A DNA stretch of 19,782 bases from a virus (taxonomy: Duplodnaviria > Heunggongvirae > Uroviricota > Caudoviricetes), in the IMG/VR virus record IMGVR_UViG_638341196_000006; one strand, written 5' to 3'. A model generated the notes under the pieces. That model worked only from the letters and a program-made list of their open reading frames with translations. It was not told where the DNA came from and made no database searches. Of this stretch, positions 11,924 to 12,786 are shown piece by piece. Both the position numbers and the translations under genes were made by a program. The first letter of the stretch is position 1, and every line of letters begins with the position of its first letter.

Positions 11924-11952
11924 TTGACTGCGTGTGATGTCGGGGCTATATT
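11924..11952 (+). promoter_or_regulatory. sigma-70 promoter of antirepressor module A (TTGACT 11924-11929, 17-bp spacer ending GGGGC, TATATT 11947-11952)
   Basis: Read directly; the same TTGAC...GGGGCTATATT arrangement recurs at 14402-14431. Confidence 0.55.
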
Positions 11953-12065
11953 TGGCGAACACCTCATAAAACGGGTGCCGGGATTAGCACCCCGAAAGTT
12001 ACTCGAGCGCATAACCGCGCTGAAGCGGTTTTTTTATGCGTAATGCACAGCCACATTCAAATTAT

Positions 12066-12145
12066 GGTGAGGCGTGCGGGGCAGCCGCAAGGCTGGCCGG
12101 GTTCTCGAGTGACCGGTAGTGCTAACCCTGTGCGTCTCACCACCC
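12066..12145 (+). ncRNA. candidate c4/IsrK-like antisense RNA, module A: ~80 nt closed by a 9-bp stem, carrying antisense segments CTCGAGTGA (12104-12112) and GTGCTAA (12119-12125)
   Basis: Stem ggtgaggcg (12066-12074) pairs cgtctcacc (12133-12141) and covaries with copy B; inner hairpin tgcgg/ccgca; both antisense segments pair with sites upstream (11982-11990, 11999-12007) and downstream (12150-12158, 12184-12192, the latter overlapping SD 12190-12194). Confidence 0.45.
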
Positions 12146-12201
12146 ATGAGATTAGCACCTCTGGTGGTGAGTTAATTAACTTATCACTTGAGGATGTCAT
12201 T

Positions 12202-12786
12202 ATGGCTACTACCCTTTCTCACCCTGACGTAACCATCGAAAATGGTCGCGCCGTCACTACTTCTATTTCGATTGCTGAGTTTTTTGGCAAGCAGCATCAC
12301 CATGTTGTTCAGAAAATAGAATCCCTCGAATGCTCTGAGCAATTCTTAACCCGCAACTTTTCGCGGGTTAAATTCGAACACCGAGGCAATACCTATAACG
12401 CCTACCAAATCACCAAAAACGGCTTCGTTTTTCTGGTGATGGGCTTCACCGGCAAAAAAGCAGCTGCATTCAAGGAAGCCTACATTGCTGAATTCGATCG
12501 CATGGAAAAACAACTATGGGAACAGAAACAACTGGCCCTGTCTTCTCCTGCGATGAATATCAATTTCCCTTTATCGTGGTTTTCAGAGCATCACCCCTAT
12601 GCCACGATGAACTATGTTGATAGAAATACATTGCAGCTTGATACCTCCGTCTTATTCGACATGCCAAGCCCTGCAATGCGCATATTTAATGAATTACGTC
12701 GTAACGGCTATAACGTCGATGCGGCTGTCGCCGAATTTAACGCCTTCAAGCATCTGACGGAAGAAATGCGCCGTAAATTGCGGTGA
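12202..12786 (+). CDS. Rha-family phage regulatory protein; 3' end abuts IS1 and the stop is supplied by the IS1 terminus
   Basis: N-terminal ...TTSISIAEFFGKQHHHVVQKIESL...YQITKNGFVFLVMGFTGKKAAAFKEAYIAEFDRME resembles the Phage_pRha domain; start ATG 12202 with SD gagga 12190-12194 (the track's 12043 start is rejected); TGA 12784-12786 is inside the IS1 inverted repeat. Confidence 0.65.
   Translation: MATTLSHPDVTIENGRAVTTSISIAEFFGKQHHHVVQKIESLECSEQFLTRNFSRVKFEHRGNTYNAYQITKNGFVFLVMGFTGKKAAAFKEAYIAEFDRMEKQLWEQKQLALSSPAMNINFPLSWFSEHHPYATMNYVDRNTLQLDTSVLFDMPSPAMRIFNELRRNGYNVDAAVAEFNAFKHLTEEMRRKLR

Follow-up and report, generated by a model that had tools for sequence, protein, structure and literature searches.

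The window analysed here is the whole 19,782-nt stretch of DNA of virus record IMGVR_UViG_638341196_000006 (Caudoviricetes). Between positions 11924 and 12786 it holds a promoter, two small RNA elements and rha, the gene of a Phage_pRha family regulator. A preliminary description, made by reading the letters, had proposed that this region is an antisense-RNA immunity module resembling c4 of phages P1 and P7. One structured RNA, C4, would carry two recognition segments (a' and b') able to pair with target sites upstream (a1, b1) and downstream (a2, b2) of itself. We refer to this region as module A and to rha as its cargo. The features of module A are as follows.

11924-11952, plus strand: sigma-70-type promoter (TTGACT 11924-11929, 17-nt spacer, TATATT 11947-11952)
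11959-12035, plus strand: IsrK-like leader or short small RNA (sRNA) with b1 and a1 and an intrinsic terminator at its end (Rfam isrK, RF01394)
11984-11990, plus strand: b1 target TTAGCAC, perfectly complementary to b' over 7 bp and located in the second IsrK hairpin loop
11998-12007, plus strand: a1 target GTTACTCGAG, unpaired in the linker that precedes the terminator, 10-bp duplex with 12104-12113 including one G-U pair
12013-12035, plus strand: intrinsic terminator that ends the short IsrK-like RNA, with its stem at 12013-12030 followed by a U run (terminator scan and isrK consensus structure)
12060-12147, plus strand: C4 antisense RNA, 88 nt (Rfam RF01695), with closing stem 12065-12081/12126-12142, hairpin 1 12082-12095, hairpin 2 stem 12096-12100/12113-12117 and 3' tail CACCACCC
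12064-12201, plus strand: orf45-like frame whose AUG lies on the 5' edge of C4; its translation is open, has no stop and is in frame with the rha ATG at 12202
12101-12113, plus strand: a' recognition segment, in the 12-nt loop of hairpin 2, core CTCGAGTGA at 12104-12112
12119-12125, plus strand: b' recognition segment GTGCTAA, in the unpaired joint that leads into the 3' strand of the closing stem
12136-12171, plus strand: alternative hairpin showing b2 in its loop, outer helix 12136-12144/12163-12171, inner helix GAG 12148-12150/CUC 12159-12161
12152-12158, plus strand: b2 target TTAGCAC
12184-12195, plus strand: a2 target TCACTTGAGGAT overlapping the rha Shine-Dalgarno sequence (SD), 12-bp duplex with 12101-12112 including three G-U pairs
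12202-12786, plus strand: rha, Phage_pRha family regulator, cargo of module A (PF09669, E = 2e-26)

Two RNA elements upstream of rha

The covariance-model search that the preliminary description had suggested as a check recognized both RNA elements above the Rfam gathering scores. The C4 model aligned from end to end (model positions 1-87 of 87) with 78.6 bits against a gathering score of 45 (E = 3.2e-14). The isrK model also matched over its full length (1-77 of 77), with 61.6 bits against a gathering score of 50. When 12060-12147 was folded alone, the minimum-free-energy and centroid structures both corresponded to the C4 consensus (-46.9 kcal/mol, z = -4.15), and none of 200 shuffled sequences folded as stably. 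A long closing stem surrounds two hairpins; a' occupies the hairpin 2 loop and b' the unpaired joint, and the tRNA-like stem is accompanied by a CCACCC tail. The closed element of about 80 nt that had been described is thus present, and measures 88 nt by the Rfam model, but its closing stem is 17 bp long and not 9 bp.

The near-consensus promoter had been placed correctly, with all its motifs within 11924-11952 and 10 of the 12 consensus positions matched in the promoter scan. No LexA box (CTGT-N8-ACAG) was seen on reading 11900-11960 by eye. The isrK match starts at 11959, 7 nt past the -10 hexamer, which is the expected transcript start. This leader lies directly upstream of C4 and rha, and the C4 region has complementarity to the middle of the leader. 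It can be added to the preliminary description that the upstream a1/b1 segment is itself a gene for a terminated, IsrK-like sRNA.

Pairing segments and their variation across phages

Direct reading and a script both confirmed that GTGCTAA (12119-12125) pairs with TTAGCAC at 11984-11990 and at 12152-12158, and both gave TTACTCGAG at 11999-12007 as the core of a1. The proposed pairing of 12104-12112 with one site on either side was also found, and the duplexes extend further than initially described, to 10 bp at a1 and to 12 bp at a2 (core TCACTTGAG, 12184-12192). The downstream a target does overlap the SD of rha. Indeed, the a':a2 duplex at 12184-12195 covers the whole SD (GAGGA, 12190-12194), which lies 7 nt before the ATG (12202-12204). 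The targets had been said to follow each other in the order b then a, as the mirror of a' then b' in the RNA. In line with this, a search of the 19.8-kb window for the composite pattern TTAGCAC-N(3-33)-TYACTYGAG gave exactly three occurrences (expected 0.00), at the upstream target, at the downstream target and, on the minus strand, as the antisense copy provided by a'/b'.

It is extremely improbable that these complementarities are chance matches around a GC-rich hairpin. Dinucleotide-preserving shuffles were performed on the flanks (5000 each). The 7-nt b sites of module A were individually unremarkable, being reached in 1002 (upstream) and 633 (downstream) shuffles. By contrast, all four sites were never reached jointly (0/5000); the duplex lengths of the a sites taken singly were reached in 45 (upstream) and 9 (downstream) shuffles. 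Together with the uniqueness of the composite pattern, the Rfam scores above threshold and the family-wide co-variation reported below, the shuffles rule out chance complementarity.

To survey the family, viral contigs were scanned for the scaffold of the a' hairpin, the loop being left free. The scan returned 120 loci; 87 of them were unique and represented 42 distinct combinations of a' and b', hereafter called types. The a' loop is hypervariable. The 42 types comprise 30 a' cores and 23 b' cores, and the variants of a' and b' are freely recombined among the surveyed loci. The a' of the window, CTCGAGTGA, is paired with b' GTGCTAA here and with TTTCCAC elsewhere, with matching targets each time. 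Judged by their sequences, this implies that the two address elements a' and b' may be exchanged as modules.

The best target sites lie at fixed offsets, about -60 (a1) and -76 (b1) from the 5' end of C4, and about +4 (b2) and +35 (a2) from its 3' end. As a control, flanks were swapped between loci with different loops. This control was restricted by position because the unrestricted version was too noisy, loops sharing flanking bases. Under the same restriction, own-locus sites of at least 7 bp were present for a1 in 35, for b1 in 41, for b2 in 41 and for a2 in 40 of the 42 types, against swapped-control means of 4.6, 4.0, 2.0 and 17.4 of 42, respectively. All four sites were found in 33 types. 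A b2 site of at least 7 bp falls at +1 to +8 after C4 in 41/42 types, while a2 lies on the SD in 40/42, typically ending in GA or GG. In module A, and likewise in most types, exactly 31 nt lie between the end of the best -35/-10 candidate and b1. The commonest cargo is Rha (16/28), followed by "Derepression" family proteins and DUF6124.

The b2 target is displayed by a second conserved structure. The outer helix of the alternative hairpin is a 9-bp perfect complement, and RNAalifold, applied to the 42 types from the C4 3' strand to +70, predicted both helices with compensatory changes (for example UA in 30 types and CG in 8 at one pair; GC in 23, AU in 8, CG in 2 and UA in 2 at another). Since the 3' strand of the C4 closing stem also forms part of this outer helix, the alternative hairpin and the folded, unprocessed C4 are mutually exclusive.

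The closest sequence relatives of the locus are Shiga toxin (Stx)-converting or lambdoid E. coli prophages, with about 90% identity over 982 nt and 85% over the module. They likewise have isrK and C4 and the rha/ant cargo family, and in the Stx2 phage F004 (LC710661) the homologous site is already annotated as "C4 antisense RNA" and "isrK Hfq binding RNA". The nearest E. coli relative (about 90% identical) is of a different a'/b' type. Between it and the window, 43% of positions differ within the six recognition segments as against 11% outside them (p = 9e-7), and the changes within the segments are mutually compensatory. The window further differs from the Stx and lambdoid relatives in that its rha is cut by IS1, and in being an ipaH-bearing Shigella-type prophage remnant rich in insertion sequences (IS).

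Known systems and a probable mode of action

P1 c4 is processed by RNase P and has a secondary effect through Rho-dependent polarity. Citron and Schuster reportedly described it in 1990, for P1 and P7, as an antisense RNA with a1/b1 and a2/b2 targets that controls icd-ant1/2. In P1, the operon c4-icd-ant1/2 is repressed by C4, and the c4 promoter is controlled by C1 (PMC8198154). The c4 RNA of P1/P7 blocks ant translation by pairing around the ribosome-binding site (PMC12197685). The suggested likeness of module A to the P1/P7 immI layout holds, as module A aligns column by column with immI of the P1-like RCS47 and with the isrK-orf45-anrP region of Gifsy-1. P1/P7 immI has the same order, b1-a1, C4(a',b'), b2-a2, with a2 on a GGAGG-type SD of the first downstream open reading frame (ORF), and the start ATGGCTACT is conserved with module A. 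The specificity of P1/P7 heteroimmunity is, as in module A, set by a'/b' and the matching targets (PMC12197685). The systems differ in their cargo, a Rha-family gene directly after a2 in module A and icd followed by ant1/2 in P1/P7. They also differ in their host element, a lambdoid-type chromosomal prophage with a CI/S24 repressor for module A and a plasmid prophage with C1 operators for P1.

In Gifsy-1, isrK (1405-1481) and C4 (1507-1590 of sequence L122) lie just before anrP, with the order and spacing of module A. The Rfam c4-a1b1 model passes its threshold there and overlaps isrK, and in RCS47, which has a C4 hit as module A does, the isrK model matches the region upstream of c4. IsrK is thus the a1/b1 leader element of P1. 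The Rfam families isrK and c4-a1b1 describe overlapping parts of one element. We also observed that the c4-a1b1 model fails on clearly genuine a1/b1 sites, at which the overlapping isrK model passes.

A six-way alignment including Gifsy-1 and RCS47 showed homologous positions throughout, from transcript start to start codon, and in each aligned phage b1, a1, a', b', b2 and a2 have changed in concert. The Gifsy-1 segments, in the order b1, a1, a', b', b2, a2, are TTGGCGT, TCACCG, CGGTGA, ACGCCAA, TTGGCGT and ATCACCGGAGG; its a' and b' differ from those of module A. The compensatory Gifsy-1 mutants G28A/C162U and G31A/C159U, which prove pairing experimentally (PMC4825925), fall in positions equivalent to b1 and b' of module A. 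The first AUG of Gifsy-1 orf45, at +107 (Hershko-Shalev et al. 2016, PMC4825925), corresponds in the alignment to the AUG on the C4 5' edge. The orf45 stop, however, overlaps the anrP start, which follows the orf45 start at a distance of 134 nt and out of frame, whereas the frame of module A is fused in frame to rha. A separate orf45 with a stop overlapping the cargo start, as for translational coupling, was not found in module A. Gifsy-1 has antQ upstream and module A has hicAB and a CI-like repressor gene at 9540-10298; no Q-like antiterminator was identified upstream of module A among the ORFs scanned. A homology between Rha and AnrP was considered and rejected for lack of any similarity; AnrP instead resembles the ORF6N protein of a second module of the window, module B, described below.

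The analysis shows the sequence and predicted fold of module A, its family membership, its positional homology and the co-variation of its four sites with the loops. It is very probably a C4/IsrK module working by a'/b' pairing, and it most likely keeps rha silent by covering its ribosome-binding site. Transcription, processing, the direction of regulation and an antirepressor role for Rha would be as suggested by analogy with the experiments on P1 and Gifsy-1. We place less confidence in the exact order of events than in the identity of the module and the a'/b' pairing.

The constitutive-looking promoter at 11924-11952 would start a transcript at about 11959. Many transcripts would end at the terminator (12013-12035) as a short IsrK-like RNA with b1 in a hairpin loop and a1 in a linker. 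Read-through transcripts would hold the 88-nt C4, which would fold into a tRNA-like closed structure and, by homology with P1, would be excised as a stable small RNA. Its exposed segments, a' in the loop and b' in the joint, would pair with the targets in the rha leader, a2 on the SD and b2 presented in a loop. The a2 duplex would hide the SD, so that rha would not be translated while C4 is in excess. In cis, pairing of a1/b1 with the same C4 segments would lock the long transcript in an inactive state. In trans, as short IsrK, a1/b1 may compete for C4 or the C4 region, tuning or relieving the block.

Several observations weigh against this reading. The Rfam c4-a1b1 model (RF03163) gives only 17.5 bits at 11946-11998, for a cut-off of 46.7. 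Work on Gifsy-1 showed that IsrK activates and that orf45 is translated; it did not show that the processed C4-like RNA represses (PMC4825925). The antirepressor role of Rha is assumed; homologous loci are variously labelled Rha, Ant or antirepressor. The predicted fold of the whole leader already holds the SD in a local hairpin without C4. Finally, with rha cut short by IS1 and the prophage full of IS elements, the module may have no consequence today.

In the same whole-leader minimum-free-energy prediction, a1/b1 pair in cis with a'/b', as in "structure A" of Gifsy-1. The cis pairing and the SD hairpin together would make the leader a multi-state switch, and simple occlusion of the ribosome-binding site by C4 is probably only part of the mechanism. 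The cis pairing also favours an activation of the Gifsy-1 type, in which the C4 region would mainly be a coding or structural part of the orf45-like frame. Pairing of a1b1 with a'b' in cis would lock the transcript, IsrK, which in Gifsy-1 switches translation on in trans as a short RNA (PMC4825925), would open it, and translation from 12064 would drive rha with an N-terminal extension. We consider it possible, but unlikely, that this activation dominates. Of the 42 types, 39 have an AUG on the 5' edge of C4, and in 26 of these 39 its frame stays open for at least 40 codons, as compared with 4/39 in other frames. In the window, 12064-12201 is open and in frame with rha, and gene callers choose the long frame. 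However, no SD precedes 12064. The UGG of AUGG is base-paired to CCA in the 3' tail, and structure alone may therefore account for its conservation. The excess of open frames is real but is not taken as evidence of coding selection: it is confounded by relatedness, the open cases belonging mostly to one Rha lineage, and AUGG is also part of the closing stem. Activation of this type is moreover compatible with repression by C4, and both can coexist.

It is rather improbable that C4 is both an antisense-RNA gene and, through the AUG at 12064, the 5' part of a long Rha frame. If this were true, ribosomes starting at 12064 would unfold C4 and make an N-terminally extended regulator, longer than Rha by 46 residues, and a single transcript could either release C4 by excision or be translated through it, but not both. 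Such a toggle would go beyond what was described for Gifsy-1 orf45, and would apply in the same way to module B, where the frame from 14523 likewise runs open and in frame to 14649.

Control of the P4 CI type, in which pairing of the processed RNA causes premature transcription termination and not a translation block, is improbable. A stable processed RNA, STnc1160, arises from the Gifsy-1 orf45 region, and the Gifsy-1 authors likened IsrK/STnc1160 to P4 seqA/CI/seqC (PMC4825925). Like module A, P4 CI relies on a leader-derived processed RNA that pairs with sites upstream and downstream of itself (PMC4825925), and the terminator directly after a1 would suit such a mechanism. P4 CI acts by transcription termination, however, whereas a2 of module A overlaps the SD, and the location of a2 on the SD in nearly all types surveyed fits translational control. 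Moreover, the terminator scan predicted no terminator between C4 and rha, and the Rfam scans of the window gave no hit to a P4 CI-type family.

The state of the cargo gene bears on whether C4 silencing of rha still matters. The authentic sequence of rha stops at 12781, and its stop codon (TGA, 12784-12786) lies inside the inverted repeat of a complete IS1 (12782-13549, 768 bp). Rha is 92% identical to a 212-residue E. coli orthologue and is without its last 19 residues; the 193 residues kept include the whole Pfam domain. As truncated by IS1, the protein has 194 residues. On its right flank, at 13550, IS1 is followed by an ORF6N antirepressor paralog from codon 4, without start and upstream region. 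No target-site duplication flanks IS1 at 12782-13549, which suggests an IS1-mediated deletion or rearrangement. A tandem of three C4 modules, the middle one deleted by IS1, was considered and rejected, as the intact middle ORF6N paralog of a related chromosome (L127 3956-4738) has no C4-type leader by alignment or Rfam.

We therefore weighed whether module A is a structurally complete but functionally irrelevant relic, with a truncated cargo in a defective prophage, and find this doubtful. IS1 has removed the end of rha and abuts a 5'-truncated ORF6N gene, and the window contains several further IS elements and a RecT fragment. On the other hand, the RNA elements, the promoter, the terminator and the four targets are all intact and mutually matched, and most of Rha remains. 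C4/IsrK could also retain a trans effect on incoming phages that share its a'/b' type.

Module B, the prophage and wider meaning

Module B has the same design as module A with different recognition sequences, and consists of the following features.

14402-14651: module B as a whole
14402-14431: promoter, 11/12 consensus match
14446-14452: b1 target CTCAAAA
14459-14465: a1 target GCGATAG, followed by a U-tailed hairpin
14525-14608: closed RNA of 84 nt with a' CTATCGC and b' TTTTGAG
14606-14612: b2 target
14631-14638: a2 target GCGATAGG, on the SD of the cargo gene
14649: start of the cargo, an ORF6N/P22_AR_C antirepressor gene

The four sites of module B were not reached jointly in any of 5000 shuffles. 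Its RNA is Rfam sRNA-Xcc1 (RF02221, 78.1 bits), and the C4 model gave no score on it at E <= 1. Cross-talk between the two modules was rejected, since the a'/b' segments of each form no duplex with the target sites of the other. Module B resembles C4 in its closed-stem RNA of about 85 nt, its CCACCC tail, its own promoter and its terminated leader. It differs in having a separate covariance model, a different internal hairpin 1 and ORF6N/P22_AR_C cargo. A scan of viral contigs for the sRNA-Xcc1 scaffold gave 12 distinct recognition regions, and in most of these 12 types a' varies together with matching sites upstream and beside the downstream SD. By these sequence features, the phage members of sRNA-Xcc1 look like C4 analogues. 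No statement of this link was found in the literature searched; an APSE phage paper notes sRNA-Xcc1 upstream of an ORF6N gene, without the target layout.

Gene callers extend the cargo genes of both kinds of module into the RNA genes. In a relative, PGAP stretches Rha upstream through C4 to a 298-residue "Rha" (L121 4151-5047), which swallows both RNA genes. An ORF6N coding sequence is likewise overextended through the sRNA-Xcc1 gene, to 260 residues (L127 4938-5720). These calls arise because the frame from the AUG at the RNA 5' edge is open and in frame, and Rha and ORF6N proteins in databases probably carry spurious N-terminal extensions. Since gene callers overextend rha, 12043/12064-12201 would be better labelled as noncoding RNA than as the N-terminus of Rha.

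Both modules lie in an IS-rich prophage remnant with a CI/S24 repressor, hicAB, a lambda-type integrase and an ipaH E3-ligase gene, which matches Shigella-type chromosomes. The genes hicA (11046-11300) and hicB (10705-11049), on the minus strand, are directly upstream of the C4 module and divergent from it, and are preceded by a perfect 12/12 sigma-70 consensus promoter (11358-11330, minus strand). The integrase gene (15586-16659) is followed by an ipaH-type NEL E3 ubiquitin ligase gene with LRR_TTSS (17222-18985). The Shigella-type chromosomes CP026824 and CP026845 have the same integrase beside the same module B, with ipaH split or absent. At the other end of the window, an IS cluster (271-6826) interrupts the phage recombination genes. 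It includes IS30-like HTH_38+rve genes at 271-1584 and 4772-5923 and IS3-family rve genes at 1552-2391 and 4447-6826. RecT is present only as a C-terminal fragment (3777-4256), adjoining the YqaJ exonuclease gene (3091-3780).

Module A is an ordinary copy of an already-known kind of element, represented by c4 of P1/P7 (1990), the motifs of Weinberg 2010 and IsrK of Gifsy-1 (2016). For the window itself the finding matters little, as C4 and IsrK are detected by curated Rfam models and related Stx phages are already annotated. Both modules are best regarded as switches of secondary immunity on antirepressor-type genes in a prophage remnant of Shigella type. The survey of the C4 family shows a large recombining repertoire of two-part address codes, and phage sRNA-Xcc1 members have the same four-site design. 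Both results extend known biology and do not overturn it, and are useful pointers for predicting cross-immunity between prophages.

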